Shown here piece after piece: positions 6,127-24,800 of a stretch of DNA of 64,000 nt (positions are counted from its first letter, which is position 1; each line of letters begins with the position of its first letter). This DNA is from Nemertoderma westbladi. Lineage: Eukaryota; Animalia; Xenacoelomorpha. Both the position numbers and the translations under genes were made by a program. The notes below the pieces were generated by a model. The model saw nothing but the letters and a program-made list of their open reading frames with translations. It made no database searches and was not told the DNA's origin. The stretch covers positions 18,172 to 82,171 of the forward strand of contig JAUCBJ010008828.1 in assembly GCA_032718475.1 (NCBI GenBank). The letters are read 5' to 3'.

Positions 6127-7383
6127 CTAAATTAACAGATTTTCGGAATTGCACATTTCAAAAATTCTAGAACTATGCAACGCGGTGTAACAATATACAG
6201 CATTTACAATATAATTACTGGAACATTTTATCCTACGAAATAAACTTTGAATTGATTTGAAACGTAAATGAATGAAGCACGGAATATTGTTGCAACCAAA
6301 GAAATATGACATACTAGAACCTACAGAGATGAAAAATAGCTTTCTTGCTGCATTATTGTATGCTACCCTTAACCGATTATAGACAACAGATGAGTAGTTC
6401 CTACGTGACCACAGAGCATTACAATATAGTGGAGTTATAAATGCTAGAAATAAACGAACTTTCACTGCAACGGTACAGGTACTAAATTTTCTAAACAACG
6501 TATTTGTACGGGCGTACATACTACCTATTTGTTTCTTAATGTCAAGATCATCATCACGTGATTCGTGTATTATATGACCCAAATATGTAAATTTATCAGT
6601 TCTAGAAATAACACGCTGGTATAAATATATTGGAGCTATTGTACTTAAGTTACAAGATTTCGGGCACAAAAACATTACCTTAGTCTTCTTTAAATTAAAC
6701 ATTATAGAATGTGAAATTGCATAATCCTGACACACATTAACTAACTTTTGTAAACCTATAAGTGAATTTGACATTAAACCAATGTCGTCTGCATACATTG
6801 TATGATTAATCCTTTGACCATTAATTGAACAACCTACGTTAGCCATTATAAGTTTACGGGATAAGTCGTCCATGTAAACATTAAATAAATAACCAGATAA
6901 TATTCCGCCTTGCTTCACGCCATTAAACACTGCAAACGTTCTGGAATATGTAGCACCCCAGCGCACTTGTAATGTTTGATGTCGGTACCAAAAGGCTAAA
7001 ATACGCACCAAATAGAGTGGTACATTCCTATTTATTAATTTCTGAAAAAGTTTATCGTGCTCTATTCTGTCAAATGCTTTAGATGCATCCAAGAAACAAA
7101 TATACATAGGAGAATCATTATCTAAGTAATAATCAATAACCTCTTTCAGAGTATATACACAAAGCTCGGTACCGCTATTTGCCTTATATGAGAATTGGTG
7201 ATCGCTACAAATTAAGAAAGACTGCATTCTAGATAATAAAATACGTTCAAATATCTTACTTATTGCTGTTGAAATAGCAACGGGCCGATAGTTTGATTTC
7301 TCATCTATAGCACCATTTTTATCTTTAATGATTGGTACAATAATACTATGAATAATGGAGCTTGGTAAATAACCATGTACCAT
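6127..7383 (-). CDS. LINE reverse transcriptase domain (fragment of disrupted ORF2)
   Basis: FLDASKAFD, QGGILS, YADD, YLGH motifs. Confidence 0.85.
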   Translation of the reverse strand: MVHGYLPSSIIHSIIVPIIKDKNGAIDEKSNYRPVAISTAISKIFERILLSRMQSFLICSDHQFSYKANSGTELCVYTLKEVIDYYLDNDSPMYICFLDASKAFDRIEHDKLFQKLINRNVPLYLVRILAFWYRHQTLQVRWGATYSRTFAVFNGVKQGGILSGYLFNVYMDDLSRKLIMANVGCSINGQRINHTMYADDIGLMSNSLIGLQKLVNVCQDYAISHSIMFNLKKTKVMFLCPKSCNLSTIAPIYLYQRVISRTDKFTYLGHIIHESRDDDLDIKKQIGSMYARTNTLFRKFSTCTVAVKVRLFLAFITPLYCNALWSRRNYSSVVYNRLRVAYNNAARKLFFISVGSSMSYFFGCNNIPCFIHLRFKSIQSLFRRIKCSSNYIVNAVYCYTALHSSRIFEMCNSENLLI

Positions 7384-7428
7384 ACAAGAACTGAAAATAA
7401 AGCTAATAAAATATTTAGCCTACTACTA

Positions 7429-8076
7429 TTACTGTAAATGAAATGTTCCCCAGTCCCCCATGAAATGTCCTATCGCTTTACCTAATTTTAAATTAGCTAT
7501 TGCACATCCTACTTCTGCTGCACTTATATTCATATCAGTTGTGTACAGTACTTTATTTAGTTGTTCGTATATGCTACTGCCAACACAAAACTCAGTTACT
7601 CCATTAGTTTTGTTACAATTAAACAATATTTCAAAATCGTTTGCAAAATTACTACAAATTTCTCGTTCACCGGTCGCACCACTAACAACATTGGGTAAGG
7701 GTATTTTGCACGAAATATCTTTCTTCACGGATTTCCAAAATGAATTAAAGTCCTTAGAAAGGTTCGATTGTGCTAATTTATCGACCCGTTTTTGATTTTC
7801 GGAACGTTTACATTGTCTAAAAATACGTTTAAAATTTGCTCTGGCGTTAAGGTAGTCATCATGGTGAAGACTACCCTGCCGAGGACAGCCGGCATCTTTC
7901 CACTGTATAAAAGTATCCCGAGATTCCTCATAGAGCGCTTTAACATGATCATTCCAACCAGGAACGTTGTAACTATTGTTTGAATTCATGTTAATATTAT
8001 TACTCGGTATGGACGTTGACGCACTTTCTACTAAAGCACCTACTATACGGTCCCACAAACTACTAAGATTGTTCAC
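7429..8076 (-). pseudogene. LINE ORF2 linker between endonuclease and RT
   Basis: VPGWNDHVK...W...G.PR.G and FWKSVK motifs; lies between the EN and RT ORFs. Confidence 0.75.
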
Positions 8077-8127
8077 ATGTGATTCATCATTACAGTTTAT
8101 GGAGGTACATGTGAAGGCCTCGGGTAT

Positions 8128-8775
8128 TTATATATTATTCAATGAATCATTAAGTCTACGGTAATTATCGAGTTGCACCGGCCGAGCTGCAGTCCAAATA
8201 AACTTAGTAGGATTTGTAATCATAGTATCGCTTTTATCCGTAGTATTTACCGTAGCGTTAACATTAATATCAATAGTAAATCTTAAAGGTATATGATCAA
8301 TGGTAGCTAGATCATAAATAACATCGACATCCTTAATTAAAGAGTCGGACGTGGTGGTGCTGACAATATGGTCTAACCAAGAGGTGGTACTAAATGCTGC
8401 ACTCACAATTGTAAACGTATGTGGTGGTAATCGTTTTACATCGGACAAAATAATTCCGCAATTAGCGCACCAATCAGATAACTCTCTATAAAATGATTTT
8501 TGTGGCGAGGCATTAAAATCACCGACTATACAGCATTTCACAGTTGGGGCATTATCAATTATTGATTGTATGCGTCCTAGGTACTCTAAGTACAAATCCA
8601 AATTGTCAGATGATTCGAAAGGTAAATATAAATTCAATATTAAAATTTTCGATTTATCCGATAGGTTTACATAAAATCCCATTATTCGTTCATCCGCTAT
8701 ATTTAAATACTCAATAGAAGATGAAATTTCTTCCCTTACCATAACCGCCAGACCTCCATGTGGACGGCCGCGCAA
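8128..8775 (-). pseudogene. LINE apurinic-like endonuclease domain
   Basis: GRPHGGLA, NLYLP, GDFNA, WLDHI, DHIPL; the N-terminal LLQEH lies upstream across a frameshift. Confidence 0.82.
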
Positions 8776-9169
8776 TAATCCATTGGATAAATCTACTGAG
8801 ATTCGCCTCGACAGATAAACTTGTCATCTATTTTCGAGAGGAAACTTAATTCCTGTTTCGGAAGTAGATGCTCTTGTAACAAAACAATATCCGAAATATC
8901 ACACAAAAACCTATCAGTAGAAATCGATTTAGGTGTACGTAGAGTTACAGTTATATGTTGTTATTCTTATTGGATCCATTGTGAATTAATAAGGCCGAAA
9001 TTTGAAATATATGAAAATTAAGGAAAATAAACAAGTACAAAAATATACAATGATATATAAAAGGTGTATATACGTGAATGAATTAAGCGAATCAAATTGA
9101 TACTGCTTAATTATTCATGCTGAAACCCGACGTGAATTATTCTATTCCACTTATATTCGCTGCAAAGGT

Positions 9170-10439: not shown

Positions 10440-10855
10440 ATTTTGATATAATGAACTCTTCCCTGAAAGCGGTTTGTCGATAACTTAACGATTTTGAGAA
10501 CACTTTGTGTATGGCATGAATAATGAAATGCTAATTCTTCTGGCACATAATATGTTTAGAATAAGAGAAACCGGTTCTTGCCATTCTAAACTAAAGGAAT
10601 CACTACTCATACCAATTTATAAGGGGAGGTCCCTCGACAAAACAGTACCAAAGAATTATAGTGGGGTAATCACCCTAATCAGGATATTAGGGGAAGCTGA
10701 GATCCTTAAAGGAACCCTCATATCTACTATGGGGACAAACGAACTCCAGATGGGTTTCAAACCAAAAATCAGCACTGGAATAACAATAACATATTTGAGT
10801 GTAACTAAAATCATTCAGTACTTACTTTATATAAACACCACTCAGCTGCACATAT
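10440..10855 (+). pseudogene. Old LINE RT fragment interrupted by element A (continues after 24805)
   Basis: LLIPIYKG..DK..PKNY, LQMGFKP; after the element the sequence reads LSSAFDRVN (~24900). Confidence 0.55.
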
Positions 10856-11384
10856 TGTGACGGGATCCAGGAGGGATCTCGATTTATCCGGTATTTTAGT
10901 TTACGCGTCCCCGCCGTGTATAAAGAGTAAACGAAACAGTGAATGAGTTCTGATGTTCGGTGTATAATAACTGATGGGTATAAGATATAGATATAGATAT
11001 GTGGAAGGCGGGATATGGTAACTAAAAGTCCCGTGCTCCCCTATCTAAACTAACTAACCTATGCTAGTACTACTGCATTGAGATAACTGAATTACTGATT
11101 AATAGGTTACTGATTATATTGCACGGTTGGCCTAATTACTACCTAATCGATGCCTTGCCCCCCTCTGATTGGTTGATACCCTTGTTGGCGCCCCGTGGAG
11201 TGTTCCCGTTCACTCCACCTGTACTCTCTGGGTTAGGGGTTTGGCCCCTGACCCTTTATTGTGTGCTTCCTTCCCACTCTTATTGGGATGGCACGAGTTG
11301 GTTAATTGCCCAATCTCGTGGCTCCCAATATTGCTTATCGGCTTATAACTTTATGGGGTGTTAGCGGGATTGAGTAAGCTAACA
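10856..11384 (-). repeat. 3' LTR of element A (529 bp)
   Basis: Direct repeat of 24271-24800; about 4 substitutions and 1 indel seen by eye. Confidence 0.95.
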
Positions 11385-11395
11385 CTCCCCCCCAT
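11385..11395 (-). promoter_or_regulatory. Polypurine tract of element A
   Basis: Minus-strand G run plus AG directly abutting the TGTTAG start of the 3' LTR. Confidence 0.85.
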
Positions 11396-12095
11396 GCTAT
11401 CTTCCCGGTAAGAAGATAGCATCAACCAAAAAGTGCGCTACAATCCCGCTGGATCCCGATCTAGTATCGGGTGTGGGGTGGAATTCTTTTCTCTCGGAGT
11501 CGGCTTTCCAGGCCGCCCCCTATGGGTATGATAACGCTACCCTGTGTGCCTGGCGTCTCATGTCGGGCCGATCGCGCTCACCTCTCGCGCGACTTTTGTT
11601 TCCCCAACACTTTCGCCCTATCTCACCTTCACTCTCACCCTAACTCTCTCACACTCGGACCTCCTCGTCCCCCACTCAGCCTCTTATTCTCCCCCCCCCC
11701 CACACTAGAATTGCGTCCGCACTCTCTCTGCACTCCGCACTATTATTCCGTCCCTCAACCTCACTTCGACTGTCTCTTCCCTTCTGACGAATCTCCCCCC
11801 CCCTCTCGTGCCGTCGCACTCAAGAAGTGTGAAATTGTCTGGTGTCTCGTCCATAGTGCCATAGTCAGTTATCCCCCAGTCCCAGTAGCTAATTGAGAAA
11901 GGTTGTATGACTATAGTACTTACTCCGAACGTATATATTTCTAGATTACTAATTACTACGTACGTACATACAAATTGCACTTATATGATTATTTTGCATT
12001 AATTGAATTTGTACTTAATAGTTCGTATATCCCACGCGGCGCCCACCAGGCGTACCACGTCCAAGTCCCAGTCTCTCTCCCTCGACTCTGGGAAC

Positions 12096-14631
12096 CTATC
12101 TGTTCCTCCGGGGGTAGTTCCCCCTAGCGTCCTCTTCCCTGGGCCGCTTCTTGGTTATCACCGTTCCTCTGGCATCATCCGCTTTCTGCTTTCGGACCTT
12201 CGCCGCCACTTCCTTGCTGATCCCGGTCGTTGGCTCCTTGGGCGCTGGTGTTATTAGTGCCCGATATCGCTTCGCCGGTGGCCCCTCAGAATGGCCCGGT
12301 TGTCTCCCTCTAGTGGCGTCCCATAGGATCATTTTCATTGCCTTTGGTACGTGCTCCGCCAAGAAATCCCTAAACTCCCTTCGGTTCTCTGGCGTCCACC
12401 TGTCCAGATACCTTTGCGTGTTCATCACTCCAGCGTACGACGCCGCCGTTGCTACCTCTTGGTAGGTAAACGGTAGCCTCCGCTTTATGATTTCCATGTG
12501 AGTCTCCTGATTGATAAGGAAGAAACCCCACTTAAACTCCTGGGCCTTCATGCGCTGGCGCGTCATGGCCCCGACGTCGGCCCACTCCTCGAATCTTGTG
12601 AACTTCTCCTCGTCGTTCATCCAGTCGCACTCGCGTCCGTAGTGTCCCCGAAAGTGGCACTTTGGACATCGGTTATGCAACCGTGGACACGCCCCCATCC
12701 TGTGGCTTGGTTCTCTGCAGTAGAGACAAAAGGTTCCCTGTTGGAACCGGTATAGACAGCTGCTTTCCCGATGGGTCCGTCTCCCACAGTAATCGCAGCC
12801 GAGTACCAATGTCTCCCGTCCCACCTCGTCTTTCGTCCCAAGCGATCTCCGCGGTCTGTGGAGTCGCTGGTAGGCGAATTTCTCTACGTTGGTCTCCCTG
12901 TCTACGTCGATCTCTCCGCCCCTCTCGGGCATCGTCTCCCCGAATACTATCCGTGGTGCCGTCCCCGGTTGCTCGCCCAACCTGATGGTGCTCCCCGCGA
13001 AATCCATCGCCGGCTCCTCGTGCACCCAGGTCCGCTTGCCGGATCTGTTCCAGAAGGCCCTTGCCCCACTGGCCGTCACCACCCTTCCGCCAACCCAGTC
13101 CGTGTCCGAGTGGCCTATCCTCTCGATGGGCGGTATCTCTCCAAACTCGTCGTCGTCGTCCTCCTCTTCTGGTAGTGTCTCCAATCCCGGTATCCCGATG
13201 GATCCACTATGTCCCTTCCCGCCTTGGCTCTCGCCCGTAGCTCTCCATCCCTCTAGCTCCCTTAACTTCCTTGGCGGTTGGTCGCCCTCGGCGCCCGCTG
13301 GTATGGGCATCGTTCGCAACCCCGACGTCGACTGTTTCGGCGATCCCACCGTCCATCCCAATTCTCGCCCTAGAGACTCCCCCGAACTCCCTGACGAAGT
13401 CCAATGAAGTTCGTCTAGGCCCGCCTGTTCCTCGAAGCCGTAACTCTGTGTCCTGGCCTCCTCTTCCCTCTCCTCTGCTTCTATCCTCTCCCGTCTAGCG
13501 ACTTCTTCCAGTCGCTTTGCTTCTCGTCTATCCGTCTCTAACTGCTCCCATCTCTGATACGGTGTATCTGTCTCCCCGTCTACCAGATGTCGGCTGTTGT
13601 AATACACCGACTCGCCCTTCAGCCCCGGGTGGTCTACCAGACCGTCAAAGGCCACTTTAAAGGCTCTCCTGTAGCTTAGGGGTGATCCCGATAACAGAAA
13701 TGCCCCTGGTTCCCTCTCGATAATCACGGTCATGAATAAGTTAAGCAAACTTATCATCATCCAGTCCTCCTGCAGGATATATCGCTTCTGATATACCTTT
13801 ATCGCTCCCCTGCGGAACTGATATACCTCCTGCTTTCCCGGTCTCGCTCCCCACTTTAGCGAGTTCGCTAGTTCTGCCCCGTATTCTTCCCTAAACTTCC
13901 CCCAGGAATACGAGCCCCAATAATTGGCCCATCGCCACCGCCCCGCATTGGCCTGTGTTTTCGACTACCCCCAATCCATCCGGTGCCGTCATAGCCATAA
14001 AGACTTTCTGCATATCCAGGAGGTTGGTGGCGTCCGGACCGATGATCCTCTCCGCGTCCTCGCGAATCGCCGATCCCACTTTCGTCGTCGACTTCTCTCT
14101 TACTAAGACTTGTACCGCTTTCGGTAATCGGTCTAATTTCGGCCCGTCCTTCTTCCCATACGTCCCTAGGTCGAATAAGAAGATGTCCCCATTTGGCGCG
14201 GCCAAATGTAGGAGTATGGTCCTGGCCGACCCTGCCGTTCCTCGTCTCGAACCCGCTTCGTCTTCCACGGTTCCCTCGTCATCTAGGATCATATATCCTC
14301 CTCTGTTGACGGACTCTATGAATCTTTTCCAGTCCTTCCTCGGTGATTCCCTCGGGTATTTCGGAATCCCGAACTTCGCCTCGTCCCCTTTCACCACGTA
14401 GTGGAAGTGTTGGAAGATCGCGTTGTCTAGCGACGGGGTCCCGTAGGTCCCGACCAGCCGCTGTTCGTGCGCCTCCCGGAAGTGATCCTGCAGCGCTCGT
14501 GCCGCGTGACCCCTTTCCAACCTCTCGTAGTATCCTCTCGTCTTCTCTTCCGGATGTCTCTAGGTGAAATCCACCAGTATCTCCTTTCCTCCTGACTCCG
14601 CCTTTCTCTTTCTGATCAACTTACTCGCCAT
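12096..14631 (-). pseudogene. Accessory ORF: DEDDy 3'-5' exonuclease + acidic/disordered linker + three CCHC zinc knuckles (one stop and one frameshift in this copy)
   Basis: ATG at 14631 (MASKLIRKRK), TAG at 14560-14562; YMILDDEG (ExoI), LLHLA..DIFLFDL, LP..VQVLV..STTKVGSAIRED (ExoII), LLDMQ; frameshift near 13890-13960; YQKRYILQED (ExoIII-like); CDYCGRRTHRESSC, CLYCREPSHRMGAC, CPKCHFRGHYGREC. Confidence 0.72.
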
Positions 14632-15119
14632 TCCGAACGTTCACTCGCTCACCTGCAAGGTGGTGCCTTACCAAGGCGCAATACAGATGAGTGATGTATC
14701 TAGGATGTTCTGTACAGTTCGATAATGGCCTACTTCTACTTAACTGCGCCTTTTAACCTAAATTATTCCTAATTAATTTTGAAGCTAGTAAATACACCCT
14801 AATTTCGATTTCTGTCCGTTACTTTTATTATGTTCTAGAATAGCTTCCCTTGTGTTGCCACTATTTTACAATTTTCAGCCCTATTCTATTTATTTATTTA
14901 TTTACTTTGATTCTACTGTCCTACTACTTGCTACTGCCTATGGATTACTCTATTCTCTAATCCACATTCTGGCCTACTCTGTGGGTCTATGCAGTACAGC
15001 AGTATACGTCGTGTGGCCACACGATTTACCCAGCTGTACTCATATGCCCCCCTCTCGCTACTAACTGCTAACTAATATCTATATCTTATATACCCCTTTT
15101 ACTTCTTACTTTCTCTCTT

Positions 15120-15725
15120 CTAACTAACGGTACTACGTACCCTCTAACTCTCTAACTAACTAACGGTACTACGTACCTTCTAACTCTCCTCTAACTATCG
15201 GTACTACGTACCCTCTAACTCTCTAACTAATGGTACTACGTACCCTCTAACTCTCTAACTAACTATCGGTACTGCGTACCCTCTAACTCTCTAACTAACT
15301 ATCGGTACTACGTACCCTCTAACTCTCTAACTAACTATCGGTACTACGTACCCCCTAACTCTTCTAACTAACTATCGGTACTACGTACCCTCTAACTCTT
15401 TAACTAACTAACTAACGGTACTTACGTACCCTCTAACTAACTCTCTAACTGGCGGTACTACGTACCTCCTAACTAACTAACTAACTAACGGTACTTACGT
15501 ACCCTCTAACTAACTCTCTAACTGGCGGTACTACGTACCTCCTAACTAACTAACTAACTAACGGTACTTACGTACCCTCTAACTAACTCTCTAACTAACT
15601 AGCGGTACCACGTACCCTCTAACTAACTTTCTAACTGGCGGTACTACGTACCTCCTAACTAACTAATTAACTAGGTACTACGTACCTTCTTACTAACTCT
15701 CTGCCTACTAACTGCGTACCTACCA
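15120..15725. repeat. Tandem array (~16 units, ~36 bp) of GGTAC-TAC-GTACC hairpins in CTAA/CTCTAA spacers
   Basis: Repeated ctaactaacggtactacgtaccctctaact between the pol stop and the accessory ORF. Confidence 0.9.
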
Positions 15726-15833
15726 TGTACTATTTTTTTATTTATTTTATTTTGTTTGTGGGAAGGGCGTCTCGCCCTCAATCCCACCCCCCTCAGTCCA
15801 AAACTTGGACGACTAAAATATCCTCTAACTTTG

Positions 15834-18800
15834 CTAAGGTGCCCCTTCTAATAGACAACATTTACCTACAGCTCTCCTGTAGGTTTTTCTGTCCTTCGCA
15901 CCTATCTTTCCACCTATCCGCACTTCTACCGATCGGACTCTTCCGTCCTCGTCGGAGTAGGTGCCTACAACTCTCGCCAACTGCCACTGGTTGTTGATGA
16001 TAGTATCATCCGTAACGATTACGAGATCTCCCTCTCTTAACTCCCTGTTCGGCTTCCTCCACTTGCTTCGCTTATGGAGTGTGGGTAGGTATTCCTCGAC
16101 CCACCTCCTCCAATACTCTGCGCTTATTGCTTTAGCGACTTTCCAACTTTGGCGGGAGTGTATGTCATCTGGGTCTACACCCCGCATATCGATGGTCGCT
16201 GGCCTTTCCATCAGGAAATGGCTAGGCGTCAGCACGTCTAATGACTCAGGGTCATCATTCTCCGGATATAGCGGTCTGCTATTAATGATCCCCTCGCACT
16301 TCGCAAGTACTGTCCGTAAGACGTCCTCAGTGACCATGTGGGTGTTCATCAGCTTCGTCATTAGACGCTTTGAACTGCCCACTAGTCTCTCGACGCATCC
16401 TAGTGTATGTGGTGCATACGGCGTCCTTCTCTCCCACTTTACTTGTCGTCGTCTCATGGCTGCCCTGACTTCTTCTCCCTCCAGGATGTCCAAGGCCTCT
16501 GCCATCTCACTCTCTGCGCCCACAAAGTTGGTGCCGTTGTCGCTGTATATCACTGCGATCGTCCCACCTTTGCGGTCCCTAAATCTTTCTAAGGCGTTAA
16601 TGAACGCTGATGCGGTTGCATCTTGGGCGAGTTCTATCCCTACCGCCCGCGTATTGTTGCATACGAAGATAATGCCGTAGCGTTTCTCCGTGTGTCGCAT
16701 CACTTTGATCTTTATCGGCCCGAACATGTCCACACCGCAATGCGTAAATGGCGGGTCGTGCTGTCTTACCCTACTCGCCGGTAGTGGTGCCATCTCCTGT
16801 ACGGCTCGCTCCTTCTTCGCTCGTCGGCAGGTCTGGCACTGCCCCACTACCGCTTTAACCTTCTTCCTTAATTGTTTGACCCAATAGGTCCTCCTTATCT
16901 CTGTGAGGGTTCGGTTGGTGCCCCCGTGCAGTATCGATTTGTGGGAGTCCCATATAATCTGGTGGACTATTGGCGATCCTGTAGGAATGATGATGGGTTT
17001 CGGTGGTACCACTATGCTGTTGTTGTATCCCACCCTAGAATTCATTACTAGAATCCCGTCGTCATTGAGTTGTGGCGACAGCGTAATCAGCTCGCTGTCC
17101 CGTCGGATGTGCTGTTGGTTACCGACGCGTTCCACCTCGTCGCCGTAGTTCTTCCGTTGTTCATAGCGGATCACTGCCTTGGCCGCTCCTTCCAGATCTA
17201 TGGTTGTCCTGATTTTCTTGTCCTTGCCGACTCCCGCAAGGAAATTCCCGAAGGCTCTCCAATACGCCACTAGTTTCTTGGTCTTATACCAACTAGAACT
17301 GTAGCTGAGGAGTTTATCCGTTGGGTTATCGCACAGTTCCCTTCCTGGTTGCACGTCCCTAATCTCCCTCACCATCTGGGAGTATATCTCTTCTCCCTCT
17401 GAATCTCCCTCTTCTCCTTCTGATACTACTTCCGAGCCCGGGTCCACCTTCCTCATCGGCGGCCAGGCCTCCCTATCGCTCAGAAATTGTGGCCCATGTT
17501 GCCACAATACTTCCTTCTTCAGGAAAGTGTGGCGTTCCACGCCCCTCGACAGCAAGTCCGCTGGGTTCTCGTCTGTTGGGCAGTAGTGCCACCTTTCCAG
17601 TTCTGTGCTCGCCCTTATTTCGTCCACTCTATTCGCGACGAATATCGGGTATCTCGTCTTTTCGTTGTGTAGCCAACCAAGCACTACCATGGAGTCCGTC
17701 CAGTAGTGTGTCTCCACTATGTTGGGAATAGTATCCACTAGGTAGGCTGTGGCTCTTACTCCTAGTCTCGCAGCTGTCAATTCTAACTTGGGAACAGATG
17801 CTGAATCTGGGGGCGTTGACTTTGCTTTGCTAAAGGCTAGTCTGGGCCTGTGAGCCCCCTCTCGTTGTACTAAGTAGAGTGCCGCTCCGTACGCTTCCAA
17901 CGACGCGTCGGAGAACATGTGTAGGTCCAGATTCGTCATGTTCCCATCCGGGAAATACACCCTTGGCATGTTGTATGTTCCCATCTTCTCCAAGTTTCCT
18001 GTCCACTTGCTCCACTGTCTCTTGATTTCCTCTGGTACCTCTACGTCCCACTCATCTTTCAATTTGTATACTCTCTTGAGTATCTCTTTCCCCGTGACTA
18101 ATAATGGGGATGCTAGGCCTAGGGGATCGTATATCCTTGCTATATACGATACATAGCCCCTCTTCGTGTGGATGTCTGCGCCCTCCTGGCTCAGCTGATA
18201 CTTCAGTTCGTCTGTCTTTCTATCCCACACGATTCCCAATGCCTTCTGCTGAGATTCTGTTCTCTTAATCGCCATGTCCTGCCCTTTGGCTGTTGTGGGG
18301 TTATCCATGGTCGATTCTGGTTTCCTGTCCTCTATGGCTTTGATAAATTCTTCCGAACTGGATTGGAATTTGGTCAGGTTAAAGCCGGATCCTTTTAGGA
18401 TGTCGCGAACCTCGCGCCCTGTATCCAGTATCTCCTTAACCGTATTCCCAGACTCCATTCCGTCGTCTACGTAGAAGCCACGTCGAATCATATCGACGGC
18501 TCTACCGCTGTATCTATCTTCCTTCCCCTTTACTGTGTCTCTCACTGCCATAGTCGTCGTAAATGAAGACGACTTGGCCCCCATGTTCTGTACTATCATC
18601 TTATATGCTGGTATTATCGGCGGTTCTTCTTCGCCGTTATACCATAAGAAGCGTTGACTGTCGCTATCTTCTTCCGTTACACGGACTTGGTTGAACATGC
18701 CTTCTATGTCACACGTGAAGGCGTGTTTCCCATTTCGAAATCTAAGTAACACCTCTATGCCCGAATTGTAAATGTTTGGGCCTTCTAACAGGTAGTCGTT

Positions 18801-21800
18801 TAAGCACTTTCCGTCGGTCTTTGCCGATGCGTCGACTACCATCCTTAGTTTACCTTTCTTTGGATCTAAAGCCACGTGCAGTGGCAGGTAATATGTTCTA
18901 TCCGTGTTCGGCTCGTCGACCGGTAACTCCACGGCCCATCCTTTCTCGACGTACTTCTTAATCGTCCTGTGGATGTACTCATTCTTCTCGGGGCTCCGTT
19001 TTAGTGTTTGTTTCAGCTTGCGGAGTCTCGTGAACTGTCTGAGCAGTCTTTTAAGCTGCTCCTCTGCTCCCTCATCACCCATTTCCTGCATTGTTCCCGC
19101 GAACATGCATCCTGATGTCTCCGACATCCTAAATGGTATCTTACTCTTGATTGGACCACTCAGCGTCCACCCGAATGGTGTTAATATGGCCACCGGGTCA
19201 CTCTGCTTGTCTTCGCCGAAGACCGTTTGCATTCTTTCGTGGGCTGTTGGGCAGTCCATACCTACTATGATGGATACCTTCCTAACGTCCACGTCTGGGA
19301 TTGAGAAGTCAATGTTGTCCAGGAATTTGTACTGCTCAACCTCGATGTTGGTTGGTCGCCTGGCATTGATATTAATTGACTCTATCACTTGAATGGGGTC
19401 GATTGTTGCCCCATAGTCGCATCCTGGTGCCACTGCTGCAATTGCGCACCATCCTGTTCTCATCTCCAGGATCTCATCTTTGCTAGAGATGGTTGTTACC
19501 GCCATCCTGCTTGGCCTCGTTCTCAATCCTATCTCCTCGGCCACCCATTCCTCGACTAATGTGAAGGCAGCTCCACTATCAACCAGCATTAGTGTTGTTA
19601 CTGATCGATTGCCTTCCCCGATCACTCGTACTGGTACTACTCCAAGTAGCACCGTTCCTCTCTTCTTCGCCCCTACTGTGCTCGTCGCCATCGTTTGGCC
19701 TCTCCTTTGACCAAATTTCATTGGCTTCTCTTTGCACTCCCTTGCTCTATGTCCACTCATTACACATCGCGAGCAGATTTTATTGCTGAACGCATAATCT
19801 ATCTGATCTTGCCTAGGTAGCGCCTGCCAGTACCTGCAGTTCATAGTTTGATGAAGCGCATTTGCGTGTAGCTGACATTTGCTCTTTGGGTCGTAGCCCT
19901 CTTTATACAGTGCATTGCGTATCGCAGTTGCGTTCGTACCAAAGTCCCTACTATTCTTATTGTTTGGGTTTTGCCTATTGGACGTACTGGGGTTATGTTT
20001 ATTCGTGTTATTATTATTTCCCTGTCCATTCCATGATGTTGTCTTATCCTCGGCTAGCTGTGGACTTGCAGTCCCCTGCGTCGCTGCATACGGCAATGAT
20101 TGCCTAAGTCTCGGTAATGCGTTCGATGTGTTGTGCTCTGGTTTCGGTCTATGGTAGTCTGTCTTCGGTCCCTTTCCCAGGCTGTCTTCGCTATAGACTG
20201 GGTCAGTTATTAGTTCAGCCTCGTAGTTTAAGAAGTTTGACATTTCTTCTAAACCCGGTTCCGCACCCTTCTTATCTCGAGTAGAGAAGGCGATTTTTCT
20301 CCACTTGTTGCGCAGCCAGTTTGGTAGTGCCTGCGCTATCGTGGTGATGTTGTTGGACGCATTGAGCTCGTACGGCGCGTCTAGCGTCTTCAGCACGATT
20401 AGCGCCTTTTCGACTTTGTTAGCGAACGTCTTAATGCTAACGGGATTATCCTGCAGGCCACCCGATGTTATGCCCCTCAGCGTCTGCCTGATGATCTTGG
20501 CCGGGTGCCCGTATTCCCTATCCAGTGCCCGCCATGCTGTCGTGAAGCCGCCCTCTATTCCTTGATATTGCCTCACGATGTCGTATGCTGGGCCTCCCGT
20601 GTACACTTGTAGATACTTTAGGCACTCCGCCTGCGTCAAGTTTTTTGTTAGTATTTCGTTACTATACATGCGCCGAAACTGTAGATATTCTTCCGGCCTA
20701 CTCCCATCGAATTTGAATGGTTCCACTGGTGGTAGCTCGATCCTCGTTTTCAACGCATCGATCAACGTGGCCATCCCCATTGCCTGCGCTTCCAATGGAT
20801 TCGACGGGTGCTGTATAGTTTCCCCTGTCTGGTGCGGTTCATCCGTCCTATTTCTCGATCTTCTCTGACTTGGGTATGTCATCGGGGGTAGCGGCCCCCT
20901 CCATATCTCCGTGTCACACGACTTATTCTCATCCAAGGGTCTCGTTGTTCTTGCTCCTATCAGGGTAGATTGTTGATATTGTGATGGGGGAATGTCACCC
21001 TGCCCCCCCCCCACCGGTATGTTTGGTACTGGGGTTGATGTTAATATGTTGGGGCCCATGCACCTATCCGCAATAATTCCCCCCTCCCCTGGGTATATGT
21101 TATGTCCCTGCATGCTGTAGTCATACTGCTGTGCTGGTACCGGTATAGGCCTATCAGCTTCTGGCCTACCCGCCGGTATGTATTCCGCGACTTCCGGGTT
21201 TAATCCCGTTGTCCACGCTATCCTATCGCCTACATTGCCCCTCTCAGTATGGCCTATGGTATGTGCAGTAAGGCCTACAGTATGTCCTACAGTCTGCATG
21301 TGTTGTTCGGGATCGAAGTTTATTCTTCTCGAATAATCCTCCCCGCGGCTACCGTATTCTCGATCGGTAGGTATATCCCGTCGGAAAGTTTCTCTTCGAC
21401 CCCCCTCTCTACTGTTCTCATCTTCGTACCGGTACATCGCGTACCCCTCTCTCGGCGCGTAGTGCGCCTCGCCGGGTCGCATCCCTCCGGGGCGACGGCA
21501 ATCTCCCGGAGTCCGACCCCACTGACTCTCCGTTCTCATCTCGACTATCGACGGCTCGCTATCCGTCCTCGCTCTTCTATCGTTCGCGGCGATACTTCTA
21601 CTACTGTCTTCCTTTCTTCTCCTATCAGTGGAATATTCCCGCTCGTGAGATCTCTCGTCGACCTCCCGGTTAAACCCCACTGTTCTTCTTCCTTCCTCTG
21701 ATCGGGCTCGACGCTTCATCCGCCCTCTCGCGACGTCAACCCGGCTCTCTCTGCTCGGTTGCACGCCGCTGGGGATATCCGCAATCCCCCTATTACTTTC

Positions 21801-22622
21801 CGTCGCCGGTTGTTGCGGTTTACCTATTTCGGCCCTCGCATTATCCACTGACGGCTGTGGGACACTCTCTGCACCCCCCCTTTCGCCGCTAACTTGCTGT
21901 TGTGGGGTTCTCGTAGCCCCCCCCCAATCGCCACATCTAACTTCGCTACTCCTCACCTCGCTACTATATCCCTCTCCAGTCGACACATCAACCCTACCGC
22001 GGTCGGGTCTATTCACCCCCGCTTCTCCTCCTGCTATTGCGTGGCCTTCCAGGCCCTCTACTCCCTGTCTACCAACTACGTGGCCTACCAGGCCCTCTGC
22101 TCCCTGCCTACCAACTACGTGGCCTACCAGGCCCTCTGCTCCCTGCCTACCAACTACGTGGCCTACCAGGCCCTCATCTGCCTGGCCATATACGCCCGAC
22201 GCGTTTACATTAATAGCACCCGTATTGGAAACAGAATTAATTTGTCCGTTTGAAATAAAATCACTTGGATTATCTTGCGCGACTACACTATCTGAATTAT
22301 TTTGTAAATTCGGGCTCGCTGAATTATTTAAGTTATTTAGATTATTTTGTGTTATTGCATTACTTAAATTATTTTCTAAGTTCGAATTTCGGTTATTACT
22401 TTGATTAATTGGATTATTTTGCGTAGCTACATTAACATTAGAATTATTTTCTACACTAATATTAGGAATGTTCTTATTTAAATTTAAATTACTACCACTA
22501 GGTAAAGTATTGCCTGCAATAAAGGTTTGATTAGAATTGTCCCATACGGTACTATTAATATTAACCACGTCTACTGTACCATTATCATTATTACCCCCCC
22601 CCCCCCGCCCGTACGGTCGCAC
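15834..22622 (-). CDS. pol: BEL/Pao Gag-Pol polyprotein (Gag with zinc knuckles, aspartic protease, RT, RNase H, integrase)
   Basis: KFDG gag core, CSRCVMSGHRAREC, LVDSGA, DIEGMFNQV, FYVDD, FSDAS, WTDS, NPADLLSRG, HCGVDMFGP, SDNGTNFVGA, WRRWVEEYLPTL..RSKW. Confidence 0.95.
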   Translation of the reverse strand: MRPYGRGGGGNNDNGTVDVVNINSTVWDNSNQTFIAGNTLPSGSNLNLNKNIPNISVENNSNVNVATQNNPINQSNNRNSNLENNLSNAITQNNLNNLNNSASPNLQNNSDSVVAQDNPSDFISNGQINSVSNTGAINVNASGVYGQADEGLVGHVVGRQGAEGLVGHVVGRQGAEGLVGHVVGRQGVEGLEGHAIAGGEAGVNRPDRGRVDVSTGEGYSSEVRSSEVRCGDWGGATRTPQQQVSGERGGAESVPQPSVDNARAEIGKPQQPATESNRGIADIPSGVQPSRESRVDVARGRMKRRARSEEGRRTVGFNREVDERSHEREYSTDRRRKEDSSRSIAANDRRARTDSEPSIVEMRTESQWGRTPGDCRRPGGMRPGEAHYAPREGYAMYRYEDENSREGGRRETFRRDIPTDREYGSRGEDYSRRINFDPEQHMQTVGHTVGLTAHTIGHTERGNVGDRIAWTTGLNPEVAEYIPAGRPEADRPIPVPAQQYDYSMQGHNIYPGEGGIIADRCMGPNILTSTPVPNIPVGGGQGDIPPSQYQQSTLIGARTTRPLDENKSCDTEIWRGPLPPMTYPSQRRSRNRTDEPHQTGETIQHPSNPLEAQAMGMATLIDALKTRIELPPVEPFKFDGSRPEEYLQFRRMYSNEILTKNLTQAECLKYLQVYTGGPAYDIVRQYQGIEGGFTTAWRALDREYGHPAKIIRQTLRGITSGGLQDNPVSIKTFANKVEKALIVLKTLDAPYELNASNNITTIAQALPNWLRNKWRKIAFSTRDKKGAEPGLEEMSNFLNYEAELITDPVYSEDSLGKGPKTDYHRPKPEHNTSNALPRLRQSLPYAATQGTASPQLAEDKTTSWNGQGNNNNTNKHNPSTSNRQNPNNKNSRDFGTNATAIRNALYKEGYDPKSKCQLHANALHQTMNCRYWQALPRQDQIDYAFSNKICSRCVMSGHRARECKEKPMKFGQRRGQTMATSTVGAKKRGTVLLGVVPVRVIGEGNRSVTTLMLVDSGAAFTLVEEWVAEEIGLRTRPSRMAVTTISSKDEILEMRTGWCAIAAVAPGCDYGATIDPIQVIESININARRPTNIEVEQYKFLDNIDFSIPDVDVRKVSIIVGMDCPTAHERMQTVFGEDKQSDPVAILTPFGWTLSGPIKSKIPFRMSETSGCMFAGTMQEMGDEGAEEQLKRLLRQFTRLRKLKQTLKRSPEKNEYIHRTIKKYVEKGWAVELPVDEPNTDRTYYLPLHVALDPKKGKLRMVVDASAKTDGKCLNDYLLEGPNIYNSGIEVLLRFRNGKHAFTCDIEGMFNQVRVTEEDSDSQRFLWYNGEEEPPIIPAYKMIVQNMGAKSSSFTTTMAVRDTVKGKEDRYSGRAVDMIRRGFYVDDGMESGNTVKEILDTGREVRDILKGSGFNLTKFQSSSEEFIKAIEDRKPESTMDNPTTAKGQDMAIKRTESQQKALGIVWDRKTDELKYQLSQEGADIHTKRGYVSYIARIYDPLGLASPLLVTGKEILKRVYKLKDEWDVEVPEEIKRQWSKWTGNLEKMGTYNMPRVYFPDGNMTNLDLHMFSDASLEAYGAALYLVQREGAHRPRLAFSKAKSTPPDSASVPKLELTAARLGVRATAYLVDTIPNIVETHYWTDSMVVLGWLHNEKTRYPIFVANRVDEIRASTELERWHYCPTDENPADLLSRGVERHTFLKKEVLWQHGPQFLSDREAWPPMRKVDPGSEVVSEGEEGDSEGEEIYSQMVREIRDVQPGRELCDNPTDKLLSYSSSWYKTKKLVAYWRAFGNFLAGVGKDKKIRTTIDLEGAAKAVIRYEQRKNYGDEVERVGNQQHIRRDSELITLSPQLNDDGILVMNSRVGYNNSIVVPPKPIIIPTGSPIVHQIIWDSHKSILHGGTNRTLTEIRRTYWVKQLRKKVKAVVGQCQTCRRAKKERAVQEMAPLPASRVRQHDPPFTHCGVDMFGPIKIKVMRHTEKRYGIIFVCNNTRAVGIELAQDATASAFINALERFRDRKGGTIAVIYSDNGTNFVGAESEMAEALDILEGEEVRAAMRRRQVKWERRTPYAPHTLGCVERLVGSSKRLMTKLMNTHMVTEDVLRTVLAKCEGIINSRPLYPENDDPESLDVLTPSHFLMERPATIDMRGVDPDDIHSRQSWKVAKAISAEYWRRWVEEYLPTLHKRSKWRKPNRELREGDLVIVTDDTIINNQWQLARVVGTYSDEDGRVRSVEVRIGGKIGAKDRKTYRRAVGKCCLLEGAP

Positions 22623-23293
22623 CAGTTTTGAGTCTGTCGTGCGGTCCCTGTCAGTGGGGTATCAATAAATGTATCTACGGCCCCCGGCTCCCCAAAAATA
22701 CTCGAGCCGGCCCCGCTTTCAGACGGCGACGCTCGCACCAGTTGCAGCTCGTGCGCCCGTCTAATCTTATCTTCCGCAAGCACACTCTGGCGTCTCTTTA
22801 ATTCCTTGTGCTCTCGTTCAGCCTCTGCCATTCTCCTCTCACACTCCTGGGTGTCCCGGGCGGCCGACTCCGCTACACTCCTAATGCTCTCCCTTCGTCT
22901 CACCTCGCGCTCCTTGCGTTCCTTTTCCCTTCTCGCCTCATGTTCCTTGCGTTCCTTTTCCCTTCTCGCCTCATGTTCCTTGCGTTCCTTTTCCCTTCTC
23001 GCCTCATGTTCCTTGCGTTCCTTTTCCCTCCTCGCCTCATGTTCCTTGTGTTCCGCCTCACGCTCTTTGCGTTCCCTATCCTCCCTCGCCTCACGCTCCC
23101 TACACTCCTTTTCCTCTATTTCCTCACACTCCCTAAGGCTTCTCAAAGCCCTTTCGGCCCTCTCTCCGGTTTCTCTAATCAATGCCGCTTCCCTCGCTAA
23201 CCGCACTCTCCCCTCCTCTAACCGTTCCTCCATTTCCCTCTGACCTTGTTCTACCATGTTGAGACGGTATGCGGCACCTATCTCTCTCACCAC
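22571..23293 (-). CDS. Coiled-coil N-terminal Gag segment of element A (frameshifted from the main ORF at a poly-C run)
   Basis: Same strand, overlaps the main ORF at the homopolymer near 22594-22606; 33-bp repeat encoding HEARREKERKE. Confidence 0.6.
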   Translation of the reverse strand: MVREIGAAYRLNMVEQGQREMEERLEEGRVRLAREAALIRETGERAERALRSLRECEEIEEKECREREAREDRERKEREAEHKEHEARREKERKEHEARREKERKEHEARREKERKEHEARREKERKEREVRRRESIRSVAESAARDTQECERRMAEAEREHKELKRRQSVLAEDKIRRAHELQLVRASPSESGAGSSIFGEPGAVDTFIDTPLTGTARQTQNWCDRTGGGGGVIMIMVQ

Positions 23294-23328
23294 TCTTTCT
23301 TTCGCGGAGGATGTAGCAGACTTATCGG

Positions 23329-24204
23329 TTACGACGGACCCCCTCCGCCTTCCCGACCTACTAACTTTCCCCCGCCTCCCGGAACTTTCTCCGACCGACG
23401 AGCTGAATCCTCGGGGTTAACCTCGGATTCGCCCCCCTCGGGTCCCCTCCAACCCACTAATTTTACTCCCCGGGCATCGACCAAGTATGGCCCTATGTAC
23501 ACTGGCGCTACGCTAGGTTCCATACTCCCACACTCCCATAGTTCAAACAGTTCGCCGGCAACCCCTTTTGCTCTCTCCTCGGCTAGTTCTCTCTGCCCAA
23601 AACGTATTAGGTAATTAAAGTGTCTATCCGACTCACCTAGTCGCTTTCTCAGTCTCACCTCGTCTACCTTCGCCCCTTCCTTCTTGGCGTCCTTCATTAG
23701 CTTCCGGGTCGCGTTGTAGGCCCGTCGAAGTCGCTCTGAAACCCCGACGTCCTCGTCGCCGACCTCTCCTCCGTCCCTCCGGGTTCGACGTCGTACCGGC
23801 GGCTCCACCGTCGCCGTTCCGGTGGGCCGTCCGTCGCCCTCGGCCTGTAGCTGGCCGGCGACATCGGTACCGATGTCTCCTCCGTCTCTCTGCGTCCGGG
23901 GCCGCACCGTCGGCCCCACCGTCGCCGTTTCGGCGGGCCGCTCGTCGCCCTCGGCCTGTGGCTGGCCGGCGACACCGGTGCGTCGACCCCCGTCCCGTGT
24001 CGACTCGTCTCCGTCTCCCTCCGTCCCGCTCTCTCTTTCTCTCGGTTCGACCTCGGGTTCCAGGCCCCCCTCGTCCTGAACTGCCGGATGACCCGTTACC
24101 GATGGGTCCGGCGTTGTGGGCCTGTATCGCCTGGTTGCGGCCTCGCGGATCGTTAGGTCTTCGTCCGGGGTCCGCGTCGGTGTCGTGTCACCTGACTGAC
24201 TCAT
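23329..24204 (-). CDS. Probable true N-terminus of element A Gag (frameshifted)
   Basis: First ATG lies 67 nt inside the 5' LTR boundary; purine-rich codon bias like the rest of gag. Confidence 0.55.
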   Translation of the reverse strand: MSQSGDTTPTRTPDEDLTIREAATRRYRPTTPDPSVTGHPAVQDEGGLEPEVEPRERESGTEGDGDESTRDGGRRTGVAGQPQAEGDERPAETATVGPTVRPRTQRDGGDIGTDVAGQLQAEGDGRPTGTATVEPPVRRRTRRDGGEVGDEDVGVSERLRRAYNATRKLMKDAKKEGAKVDEVRLRKRLGESDRHFNYLIRFGQRELAEERAKGVAGELFELWECGSMEPSVAPVYIGPYLVDARGVKLVGWRGPEGGESEVNPEDSARRSEKVPGGGGKLVGREGGGGPS

Positions 24205-24260
24205 CCTCTTCTGCAGATTTCGGTGGCTAGTGGTTGAGTTTTATCTGGGGCGGCAGCTGG

Positions 24261-24270
24261 TTTTAGTTAC
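24261..24270 (-). promoter_or_regulatory. Non-tRNA primer-binding site candidate GTAACTAAAA (complementary to LTR 24433-24442)
   Basis: Abuts the 5' LTR, lacks TGG, and is a perfect inverted repeat of an LTR-internal segment. Confidence 0.7.
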
Positions 24271-24800
24271 TGTGACGGGATCCAGGAGGGATCCCGATTT
24301 ATCCGGTATTTTAGTTTACGCGTCCCCGCCGTGTATAAAGAGTAAACGAAACAGTGAATGAGTTCTGATGTTCGGTGTATAATAACTGATGGGTATAAGA
24401 TATAGATATAGATATGTGGAAGGCGGGATACGGTAACTAAAAGTCCCGTGCTCCCCTATCTAAACTAACTAACCTATGCTAGCACTACTGCACTTGAGAT
24501 AACTGAATTACTGATTAATAGGTTACTGATTATATTGCACGGTTGGCCTAATTACTACCTAATCGATGCCTTGCCCCCCTCTGATTGGTTGATACCCTTG
24601 TTGGCGCCCCGTGGAGTGTTCCCGTTCACTCCACCTGTACTCTCTGGGTTAGGGGTTTGGCCCCTGACCCTTTATTGTGTGCTTCCTTCCCACTCTTATT
24701 GGGATGGCACGAGTTGGTTAATTGCCCAATCTCGTGGCTCCCAATATTGCTTATCGGCTTATAACTTTATGGGGTGTTAGCGGGATTGAATAAGCTAACA
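24271..24800 (-). repeat. 5' LTR of element A (530 bp)
   Basis: TG...CA ends, followed by TSD CATAT. Confidence 0.95.

Follow-up and report, generated by a model that had tools for sequence, protein, structure and literature searches.

Accessory genes in the env slot show which functions LTR retroelements require in addition to gag and pol. A retrotransposon on the minus strand of the window, the whole 64-kb stretch of DNA analyzed here, raises this question directly: what is encoded by ORF3, the reading frame in env position? An initial annotation had read a sense gene of about 840 codons at this site, coding for a DEDDy-type 3′–5′ exonuclease with three zinc knuckles. According to our analysis ORF3 is a genuine accessory gene carried by a high-copy BEL/Pao family, and its N-terminal domain is probably a very divergent DEDDy-type (RNase D/WRN-exo-like) 3′–5′ exonuclease that the knuckles would hold on element RNA or cDNA. 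The features of the locus are collected in Table 1.

Table 1. Features of the BEL/Pao element and of ORF3, in positions of the window
Feature	Position	Strand	Remarks
Complete BEL/Pao LTR retrotransposon	10856..24800	-	13,945 bp; LTR pair, target-site duplication, Pfam domains
Target-site duplication	10851-10855 and 24801-24805		5 bp, identical flanks
5′ LTR	24271..24800	-
3′ LTR	10856..11384	-	purine-rich tract (about 11385-11408) ahead of it on the minus strand
gag-pol open frame	15834..22661	-	2275 codons; one CCHC knuckle and YVDD motif
36-nt tandem repeat array	15113..15694	.	16 copies, inside the 1.2-kb spacer that separates pol from ORF3
ORF3, accessory gene in env position	12096..14631	-	one stop and one frame change interrupt this copy
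ORF3 start ATG	14631	-	after a stop
In-frame stop TAG	14560..14562	-	after codon 23; confined to this copy or to a rare subfamily
First long ORF3 frame	14559..13894	-	222 codons
Second long ORF3 frame	13964..12099	-	622 codons
Break between the two ORF3 frames	13906..13909	-
Exonuclease-like domain	13715..14310	-	ExoI-, ExoII- and ExoIII-like motifs; block test
ExoI-like D-x-E motif	14289-14272	-	ILDDEG
Strand-like segment	14200-14223	-	TILLHLA
ExoII-like motif	14082-14056	-	KVGSAIRED
S-x-W-x-x-R-P motif	13862-13839	-	SLKWGARP
ExoIII-like string	13790-13764	-	QKRYILQED; assignment as ExoIII ambiguous
Acidic linker	12798..13714	-	partly coiled, low-complexity; by composition; differs among copies
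Three CCHC zinc knuckles	12627..12797	-	C-X2-C-X4-H-X4-C pattern match
First knuckle	12797-12756	-	residues 390-403 of the 622-aa frame
Second knuckle	12728-12687	-	residues 413-426
Third knuckle	12668-12627	-	residues 433-446
C-terminal region of ORF3	12096..12626	-	basic NLS-like tail; stop codon 12096-12098

The host is a BEL/Pao element (Belpaoviridae), as it carries both BEL/Pao-specific Pfam families and an integrase. The gag-pol product of 2275 aa matched DUF1759 (1.4e-10), Peptidase_A17 (1.8e-39) and DUF5641 (4.2e-24) as well as the integrase families Integrase_H2C2 (3.8e-12) and rve (8e-4). Two LTRs with 98.9% identity over 534 aligned bases, TG...CA ends and a target-site duplication delimit the element, and its GC and AT skew at 12–14 kb is continuous with the remaining element. 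With 13.9 kb the element is long for its kind. The window contains no tRNA genes within its 64 kb. ORF3 is placed as described in the initial annotation: it is encoded on the minus (coding) strand with gag-pol upstream and the 3′ LTR downstream.

The gene itself is present, but it does not form a single open frame in this copy: an in-frame stop and a frame change, both overlooked initially, interrupt it, and reading moves from the 222-codon to the 622-codon frame at the break. The individual parts of the predicted protein were found where they had been claimed, namely the ExoI- and ExoII-like motifs, an acidic linker, three knuckles and basic ends. The gene was also correctly described as non-env: neither a signal peptide-like nor a transmembrane-like segment was found in ORF3 (the maximal 19-residue Kyte-Doolittle means in the two frames are 1.39 and 1.32, below the usual 1.6), and the Pfam search returned no env family. 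On the knuckles Pfam reported zf-CCHC_5 alone (E 0.32), and for the C-terminal region we obtained no family match in Pfam, NCBIfam or PHROGs and no relatives in the protein search. A second copy of ORF3 was not found within the window. A pyrimidine-rich tract ending in CAG lies ∼20 nt upstream of the ATG and resembles a splice acceptor; ORF3 may thus be expressed from a spliced subgenomic mRNA, and the basic ends of the protein could mediate nuclear import.

In order to judge the N-terminal domain we used a block test, in which position-specific scores were derived for the blocks conserved among 48 RNase D, PolA-exo and short-exonuclease sequences and then chained in order. The test picked exactly the motifs of the initial annotation, with scores of 4.5 bits for ExoI, 5.8 for the strand, 15.3 for ExoII, 9.3 for S-x-W-x-x-R-P and −1.1 for ExoIII. 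The four-block score of 17.8 bits was reached by 2 of 3000 and 3 of 3000 shuffles in two runs, and the five-block score of 33.7 bits by none of 3000 shuffles (maximum 31.2) and none of 171 real control segments (67 from other ORFs of the window and 104 from bacterial non-exonuclease ORFs), where the blocks had been picked with the candidate motifs known and block 1 was split after the first result. An extended hhalign alignment spans 169 columns and pairs ExoI, the next strand, ExoII and S-x-W-x-x-R-P. In both analyses the D-x-E of ExoI and the D of ExoII stand in conserved context, in the right order and with a spacing compatible with DEDDy enzymes. A look-up by features in the ESM Atlas over all clusters pointed the same way: the three top clusters (0.89, 0.88 and 0.88) hold PF01612 in 40%, 29% and 16% of their members and the ten best matches with a family all belong to the PF01612 clan; at scores below 0.9 and 161 shared features (fewer than 170) the tool rates this as a lead only, and one third of shuffled proteins likewise get ten matches of one clan. 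The part of ORF3 downstream of the break gave no usable match in the Atlas.

The block test and the Atlas lead thus speak for the proposed DEDDy identity, but standard profile searches and hhalign were silent or weak. Pfam searches at E≤10 with either ORF3 piece and with the read-through returned neither PF01612 nor any other exonuclease or related family. NCBIfam, PHROGs and phmmer against the PDB did not yield an exonuclease either, and the few weak matches across the profile and PDB searches (E 0.2–2.4) were unrelated. hhalign against RNase D-type alignments gave P values of 0.036 and 0.023 at a probability of 1.4–2%, with the confident part covering ExoII alone. An HMM built from RNase D only scored −0.0 bits on the domain, and HMMER with filters off gave 2.8 bits on ExoII, a score reached or exceeded in 9 of 5000 shuffles. 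Word-index protein searches with the 622-aa frame, the read-through and residues 380–622 found nothing, and the 222-aa piece had no relatives among viral and metagenome contigs. Two candidates were rejected: the sole phmmer match of the 222-aa piece among 1.84 billion representatives was spurious, a stretch of 19 residues that recurs 14 times along a repeat protein, and the single locus found with the knuckles and C-terminal part was a bacterial contig read in the wrong frame of a peptidase gene. Compared with the gag-pol product of its own element and with upstream ORFs, ORF3 showed low-complexity or pattern-level matches only. AlphaFold2 run twice without an alignment produced unusable models (pLDDT 32.7 and 32.5).

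These results have to be weighed against the possibility that ORF3 is real and constrained but that its N-terminal domain is unrelated to DnaQ-like exonucleases, the motif resemblance being coincidental; the protein would then be a knuckle-based nucleic-acid-binding or chaperone factor (a second nucleocapsid) or an adaptor. The silence of all standard profile and sequence searches, the hhalign probability of 2%, Atlas scores under the tool's 0.9 line and an ExoIII without support in the block test are what this reading would predict, and the exonuclease hypothesis was made by eye from the same sequence while many families could have been recognized, so that a p of about 1e-3 counts for less. 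However, four ordered blocks with sensible spacing outscored all 3000 shuffles and all 171 control segments, an independent, alignment-free look-up put the same family first, and ExoI and ExoII offer D, E and D as metal ligands, none of which is changed in the variants listed. We therefore regard a coincidental resemblance as unlikely, and homology of the domain to the DnaQ-like exonucleases as the probable explanation of its motifs.

A domain of DEDDy descent could also be catalytically dead and act by binding RNA, for example as an adaptor that localizes RNA or interferes with silencing. EXD1, Maelstrom and Egalitarian are catalytically dead DEDDy derivatives that work by RNA binding. Maelstrom and EXD1 are mentioned as inactive derivatives in the available part of a report on rotifer retrotransposons (PMC5408684). 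The point at issue is ExoIII. The string QKRYILQED that had been assigned to this motif is present, but the assignment is ambiguous: hhalign favors another, upstream Tyr at canonical spacing from S-x-W-x-x-R-P, which has an Arg at the position of the catalytic Asp, whereas QKRYILQED reads Y-x3-E-D, with Glu instead of Asp at the catalytic position, and is followed by a hydrophobic helix. Together with the extreme divergence from active enzymes this would be consistent with a loss of activity. On the other hand, ExoI and ExoII retain all three of their acids (D, E and D), Tyr-x3-Glu-Asp with its hydrophobic helix is on offer, and the rotifer ORF3s, as far as the available part of PMC5408684 describes them, have an altered but probably functional DEED motif. 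A dead domain thus appears quite improbable to us. With D, E and D in place and a fourth ligand provided by the E or the adjacent D after the Tyr, the putative exonuclease may well be catalytically competent.

Other copies of the element were obtained from the contigs of four public runs (X1, X2, X5 and X6). The family carrying ORF3 is a high-copy family: 5974 contigs of X1 and 3338 of X2 lie on the stretch at 85–100% identity, and copies also occur in X6, whose contigs bear a different organism label. Position 14562 in the stop codon carries a different letter in 99.3% of the X1 depth, 99.1% of the X2 depth and all of the X5 and X6 depth, which turns the stop into a sense codon. At the frame break other copies contain a longer stretch, and the length difference, derived by arithmetic and by eye, sets both frames in phase; loose contig ends lie at 13905/13910 (four in X1, five in X2 and one in X6) and at 13898 (one in X5). 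Among the sites listed, variants in other copies mostly affect the third base of codons in the claimed frame. Between 13716 and 14557, 28 of the 37 variant sites listed are synonymous, where 23–31% are expected (with the null set generously at 0.40, the binomial p is about 1e-5), and the remaining nine replacements are mainly conservative (I/V, R/K, E/D). In a first list for 13320–14620 synonymous sites numbered 17 of 18, and between 13716 and 14326, across the exonuclease-like domain, they make up 13 of the 15 sites listed. Purifying selection acts on the N-terminal domain. The span 12534–13315, which takes in the knuckles along with portions of the linker and of the C-terminal region, shows 14 non-synonymous sites among the 20 listed, and parts of the acidic linker are skipped in several copies (joints). 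None of the variants listed touches a Cys or His ligand of the knuckles or changes the metal-ligand positions D, E and D of ExoI and ExoII.

From the sense codon at the stop site, the frames in phase and the 28 of 37 synonymous sites we conclude that ORF3 is an authentic accessory gene under constraint; an ORF absent or unconstrained elsewhere would have spoken against the initial annotation, and in other copies it is present, open at both breaks and constrained. That the stretch is not an element gene at all, but what is left of a decayed env, part of a captured host gene or a foreign piece nested in the element, was already disfavored and is highly improbable: the stop and frame change of this copy and the repeat-filled 1.2-kb spacer that parts ORF3 from pol would fit such an origin, but other copies are open at both breaks and vary mainly synonymously in the claimed frame, signal peptide- or transmembrane-like segments and internal LTRs or repeats bounding ORF3 were not found, no host-gene relative appeared among the 1.84 billion representatives, and the composition of ORF3 agrees with that of the element.

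If the preferred reading of ORF3 as a knuckle-bearing, DEDDy-type exonuclease is correct, the knuckles could bind element nucleic acid inside the replication complex in a nucleocapsid-like manner, and the putative nuclease would trim the 3′ ends of replication intermediates. It might remove mismatched or non-templated nucleotides from the 3′ end of the cDNA, or it might mature the 3′ end of an RNA. Trimming of this kind could help a very long element (13.9 kb) to finish reverse transcription. The specific roles that can be named, i.e. primer trimming, proofreading and anti-silencing, are guesses. More speculative is the scenario of an active, knuckle-tethered 3′–5′ exonuclease that proofreads or trims cDNA or RNA 3′ ends like nidovirus ExoN, thereby permitting an unusually long genome of ∼14 kb, and that was acquired independently of the rotifer Gypsy-like cases, or else destroys host triggers of small-RNA silencing; we hold this scenario to be rather improbable.

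In full-text searches of the literature we found no description of exonuclease cargo in BEL/Pao elements; published cases so far, in the available parts of the reports, are rotifer Gypsy-like elements and Terminons alone (PMC5408684, PMC6431247). If our reading is true, unrelated LTR lineages repeatedly recruit 3′-end-trimming enzymes, and the many natural copies would make this family a tractable case for distinguishing a role in reverse transcription (fidelity, primer or end processing) from defense against host silencing. ORF3 also illustrates that such cargo can escape annotation at the Pfam level.

Several known systems invite comparison. In the cellular DNA_pol_A_exo1 enzymes (RNase D, WRN, Mut-7, Rrp6, PolA), the D-x-E of ExoI, the strand after it, ExoII (K-V-G...D) and S-x-W-x-x-R-P follow one another as they do in ORF3 and at roughly similar distances; in contrast to them, ORF3 gives no significant profile match, contains insertions after ExoI and before ExoIII and has an ambiguous ExoIII. 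To our knowledge none of these cellular enzymes carries three CCHC knuckles. The knuckles have the same C-X2-C-X4-H-X4-C spacing as the gag knuckle of the element itself, but there are three of them and they reside in a separate protein downstream of pol; beyond this pattern ORF3 and gag share no significant similarity (best local match 14 residues, E 0.45). Nidovirus nsp14 ExoN and arenavirus NP likewise place a DEDD-superfamily 3′–5′ exonuclease on a replicating genetic element (PMC7968707, in the part available), and ExoN goes with unusually long genomes, a possible parallel to the 13.9-kb element; however, these are DEDDh enzymes of RNA viruses and the likeness is one of analogy only. The Athena/Terminon Penelope-like elements of bdelloid rotifers are large retroelements with an accessory 3′-exonuclease, for which 3′-end processing of structured RNA or ssDNA has been proposed (PMC6431247, PMC5408684); they belong to another retroelement class, lack LTRs and are telomeric, and are likened to ORF3 here by their description in the available parts of these reports. 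The rotifer precedent of DEDDy ORFs that the initial annotation had named is real, and it includes Juno and Vesta, which are LTR retrotransposons of bdelloid rotifers. Rodriguez, Kenefick and Arkhipova (2017; PMC5408684) describe these, in the available part of their report, as rotifer-specific, Gypsy-like (Metaviridae-type) elements, whose ORF3 bears ‘strong homology’ to DEDDy enzymes; they report that its fourth acidic position is altered (DEED) and that the Vesta2 and Vesta5 ORFs contain a Cys-His-Cys motif. Both the rotifer elements and the one studied here carry a non-env third ORF with DEDDy-like motifs downstream of pol, whereas the ORF3 of this study resides in a BEL/Pao element and is invisible to Pfam; a long acidic linker joins its domain to three CCHC knuckles of canonical form, and another region follows at the C-terminus. 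Judged by these descriptions only, it is best regarded as a variant of the rotifer Juno/Vesta-type DEDDy ORF3, placed in a BEL/Pao element and fused to zinc knuckles.

ORF3, an accessory gene of a BEL/Pao element, lies within a region (~10.8–24.8 kb) that a composition scan of the window set off by a GC content of 0.42–0.57 from AT-rich flanks and by strongly negative GC and AT skew, which marks the minus strand as the coding strand. Self-comparison of the window yielded a pair of direct repeats of ~530 bp each (98.9% identity) with TG...CA ends, and an identical 5 bases flank both sides; the region therefore holds a single, complete insertion of an LTR retrotransposon, 13,945 bp long. The domain content of its gag-pol frame (see the table) is the BEL/Pao set, and YVDD was seen in the translation. 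On the minus strand pol is followed by the spacer and ORF3, and after another ~710 bases a purine-rich tract leads up to the 3′ LTR. Since ORF3 lies downstream of pol, ahead of the 3′ LTR and on the same strand, its env position and sense orientation are confirmed. The repeat in the spacer could be an internal promoter, an RNA element or a plain expansion. Upstream of the gag DUF1759 domain the coding sequence is repeat-rich and of low complexity; the N-terminal 640 residues of the gag-pol frame are Asn-rich and two extra ORFs run in other frames. By eye, the leader right after the 5′ LTR (24230–24270, minus strand) contains no obvious complement to a tRNA 3′-end, and the window holds no tRNA genes.

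Features of the element, of ORF3 and of the surrounding window
Feature	Position	Strand	Remarks
BEL/Pao element	10856-24800	minus	
Coding region upstream of gag DUF1759	20700-24240	minus	~3.5 kb; internal repeats of 111, 33 and 39 nt
Extra ORF	24240..23329	minus	303 aa; frame differs from gag-pol
Extra ORF	23416..22571	minus	281 aa; Glu/Arg-rich, coiled; frame differs from gag-pol
gag-pol frame	22661..15834	minus	2275 codons; DUF1759, aspartic protease, Peptidase_A17, Integrase_H2C2, rve, DUF5641 (Pfam)
Tandem repeat filling pol-ORF3 spacer (1.2 kb)	15113-15694		36-nt (or 73-nt) unit, 16 copies
ORF3	14631..12096	minus	~840 codons
ORF3, first frame	14559..13894	minus	222 codons
ORF3, second frame	13964..12099	minus	622 codons
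Second BEL/Pao-like element	43222-47730	plus	1502-aa frame; DUF1759, one CCHC knuckle
Non-LTR retrotransposon copy/fragment	2-1690	plus	RVT_1
Non-LTR retrotransposon copy/fragment	6127-8823	minus	RVT_1
Non-LTR retrotransposon copy/fragment	31976-35113	minus	RVT_1
LTR-like stretch	31166-31228		65 bp; 82-83% identity to the element's LTR start, opposite orientation
Satellite	56258-62437		30-nt unit, ~206 copies, 87% matches; GC-rich, very strong strand skew

Repeats appear to make up the whole window. The 30-nt satellite accounts for the many overlapping ORFs seen on both of its strands. The second BEL/Pao-like element is a different one, with only 23–37% identity to the first element's gag-pol in aligned segments, and no ORF3-like sequence was detected in it. 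Exo_endo_phos-type endonuclease matches were found in two of the three non-LTR copies. The short LTR-like stretch may be a remnant of a related solo LTR.

The ATG of ORF3 (14631) is preceded by a stop, and a pyrimidine-rich, splice-acceptor-like sequence ending in CAG is located ~20 nt 5′ of it (14650–14657, minus strand). All motifs quoted in the initial annotation were found in the sequence (ExoI, ExoII and the ExoIII-like motif). ORF3 also has an acidic stretch, basic stretches at either end and three knuckles that fit C-X2-C-X4-H-X4-C exactly. A hydrophobic segment of transmembrane strength is missing from ORF3 (maximum 19-residue Kyte-Doolittle mean 1.39), in agreement with the earlier view that this is an accessory gene and not env. 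ORF3 had also been taken as one open gene of ~840 codons: the sense gene between pol and 3′ LTR is there, but the window copy is broken twice. Codon 24 is a stop (14562–14560), and the reading must shift from the 222-codon to the 622-codon frame inside the exonuclease-like domain.

The window contains no second ORF3 copy, and other copies were surveyed via Logan contigs of public sequencing runs aligned to the ORF3 stretch. Two runs of one organism (X1 and X2) yielded 5974 and 3338 short matching contigs with 85–100% identity, and diverged pieces were also present in a third run of this organism (X5) and in a run under a different organism label (X6); the element belongs to a high-copy family that splits into subfamilies. 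The stop codon's first base is replaced by one that gives a sense codon in 99.3% (X1) and 99.1% (X2) of word depth, as well as in all of X5 and X6. At 13905–13910 contigs of all four runs diverge from the window sequence as loose ends and rejoin after a longer stretch, whose extra length exactly restores the phase between the two frames and in which no stop was seen by eye. Both defects are therefore private to the window copy or to a rare subfamily. The listing covers 37 variant sites in 13716–14557, with 28 more beyond it; 28 of the 37 leave the amino acid in the claimed frame unchanged, compared with 23–31% synonymous sites under random change, and the 9 replacements are mostly conservative. 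In the list for the whole gene, beyond which 256 more sites lie, synonymous changes make up 17 of 18 sites in 13320–14620, against only 6 of 20 in 12534–13315, a span of linker, knuckles and a portion of the C-terminal region. Parts of the linker are skipped in several copies, and it is free to vary. None of the variants among the listed sites touches the knuckle ligands or the ExoI and ExoII acids. The mostly synonymous variation identifies the N-terminal domain as a protein under purifying selection; ORF3 is thus both present and constrained in other copies, where it is open at both defect sites.

Database searches gave no exonuclease match: none in Pfam (E≤10; both pieces and a read-through carrying an X in place of the break), and likewise none in NCBIfam, PHROGs and PDB sequences. 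Word-index protein searches with the ORF3 sequence returned no matches, and scans of viral and metagenome contigs no relatives. A phmmer search of 1.84 billion representatives with the 222-aa piece gave a single match, a spurious one; the sole locus from one relatives scan was likewise spurious, and is bacterial. As judged by these searches the ORF3 protein is an orphan. AlphaFold2 on the single sequence without alignment reached a pLDDT of 32.7 and 32.5 in two runs, too low for a usable model. The comparison set comprised 48 PF01612 domains, namely 31 RNase D rows (30 from collected loci and an E. coli sequence duplicating one of those), 12 short exonucleases and 5 PolA domains. An RNase D-domain HMM scored the candidate at -0.0 bits; a broad HMM with filters off gave 2.8 bits with ExoII alone aligned, which was matched by 9 of 5000 shuffles. 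The expected family match to DNA_pol_A_exo1-type profiles was not obtained, with hhalign P-values of 0.036 and 0.023 and a probability of 1.4–2%. The extended hhalign alignment (169 columns) places ILDDEG on ExoI, TILLHLA...FLFD on the next two strands, KVGSAIRED on ExoII and SLKWGARP on the conserved S-x-W-x-x-R-P.

Exactly the ILDDEG, TILLHLA, KVGSAIRED and SLKWGARP sites were picked by a chained block test, which applies position-specific scores for conserved blocks in order with variable gaps. The 4-block score of 17.8 bits was matched or beaten by 2/3000 and 3/3000 shuffles in two runs. With block 1 split the score is 33.7 bits, above all 3000 shuffles (maximum 31.2), all 67 segments of the window's other ORFs (maximum 16.3) and all 104 control segments from non-exonuclease ORFs of bacteria (maximum 20.1). 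The blocks had, however, been selected with the candidate in view, block 1 was split once the initial score had been seen, and the p-value that this implies is no better than ~1e-3. The lowest-scoring true family member reaches 39.0. Queried with the 222-aa frame as it stands, the alignment-free ESM-Atlas look-up gave three best clusters at 0.89, 0.88 and 0.88, scores which the tool itself rates as a lead only; PF01612 occurs in 40%, 29% and 16% of their members, and the ten best matches having a family all belong to the PF01612 clan. The part downstream of the break had no match there. Agreement of this unbiased look-up with the motif reading by chance is unlikely. An ExoIII block adds nothing (-1.1 bits). 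Here hhalign favours a Tyr at the canonical distance, with Arg at the expected Asp position; QKRYILQED provides Tyr-x3-Glu-Asp ahead of a hydrophobic helix, though it lies past a 14-residue insertion. Because of this ambiguous ExoIII, a derivative that binds RNA but is catalytically dead has to be taken seriously as a rival. The proposed DEDDy identity is backed by ExoI, ExoII, S-x-W-x-x-R-P and the ESM-Atlas lead and weakened by the profile searches; with no profile match and an ambiguous ExoIII, membership in PF01612 is not established. A DnaQ-like DEDDy exonuclease is the probable ancestor of the domain; that the domain has kept the activity is less likely than the descent. The best reading is that it would work like an RNase D/WRN-type exonuclease.

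The element encodes an accessory protein of ~840 residues that is kept by selection, with a D-x-E and a D in an exonuclease-like context in its N-terminal domain, followed by a variable acidic linker, three nucleocapsid-type knuckles and a C-terminal region without assigned fold, and with basic ends. Knuckles of retroviral NC bind nucleic acid. By analogy, those of ORF3 may attach to RNA or single-stranded cDNA of the element and could bring the putative nuclease to 3′ ends within the replication complex, whereas the basic ends might serve nuclear import. The pyrimidine tract and CAG ahead of the ATG would be consistent with expression from a spliced subgenomic RNA. The most likely role would be to trim 3′ ends of replication intermediates of the element itself, with mismatched or non-templated 3′ nucleotides being removed or an RNA end matured; interference with host small-RNA silencing would be our second choice.

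Within the full-text literature covered, from which most subscription journals and Repbase reports fall out, we found no description of such a gene in BEL/Pao. Overall, ORF3 is a selectively maintained accessory gene distinct from env; its exonuclease identity is likely but not demonstrated. The precedent given in the initial annotation exists: according to the published accounts, bdelloid rotifers have a DEDDy ORF3 in Juno and Vesta, which are Gypsy-like elements, and a DEDDy ORF is also present in Athena/Terminon retroelements (PMC5408684, PMC6431247, PMC5718144). Among published cases these genes are the closest to ORF3, which in contrast sits in a BEL/Pao element.
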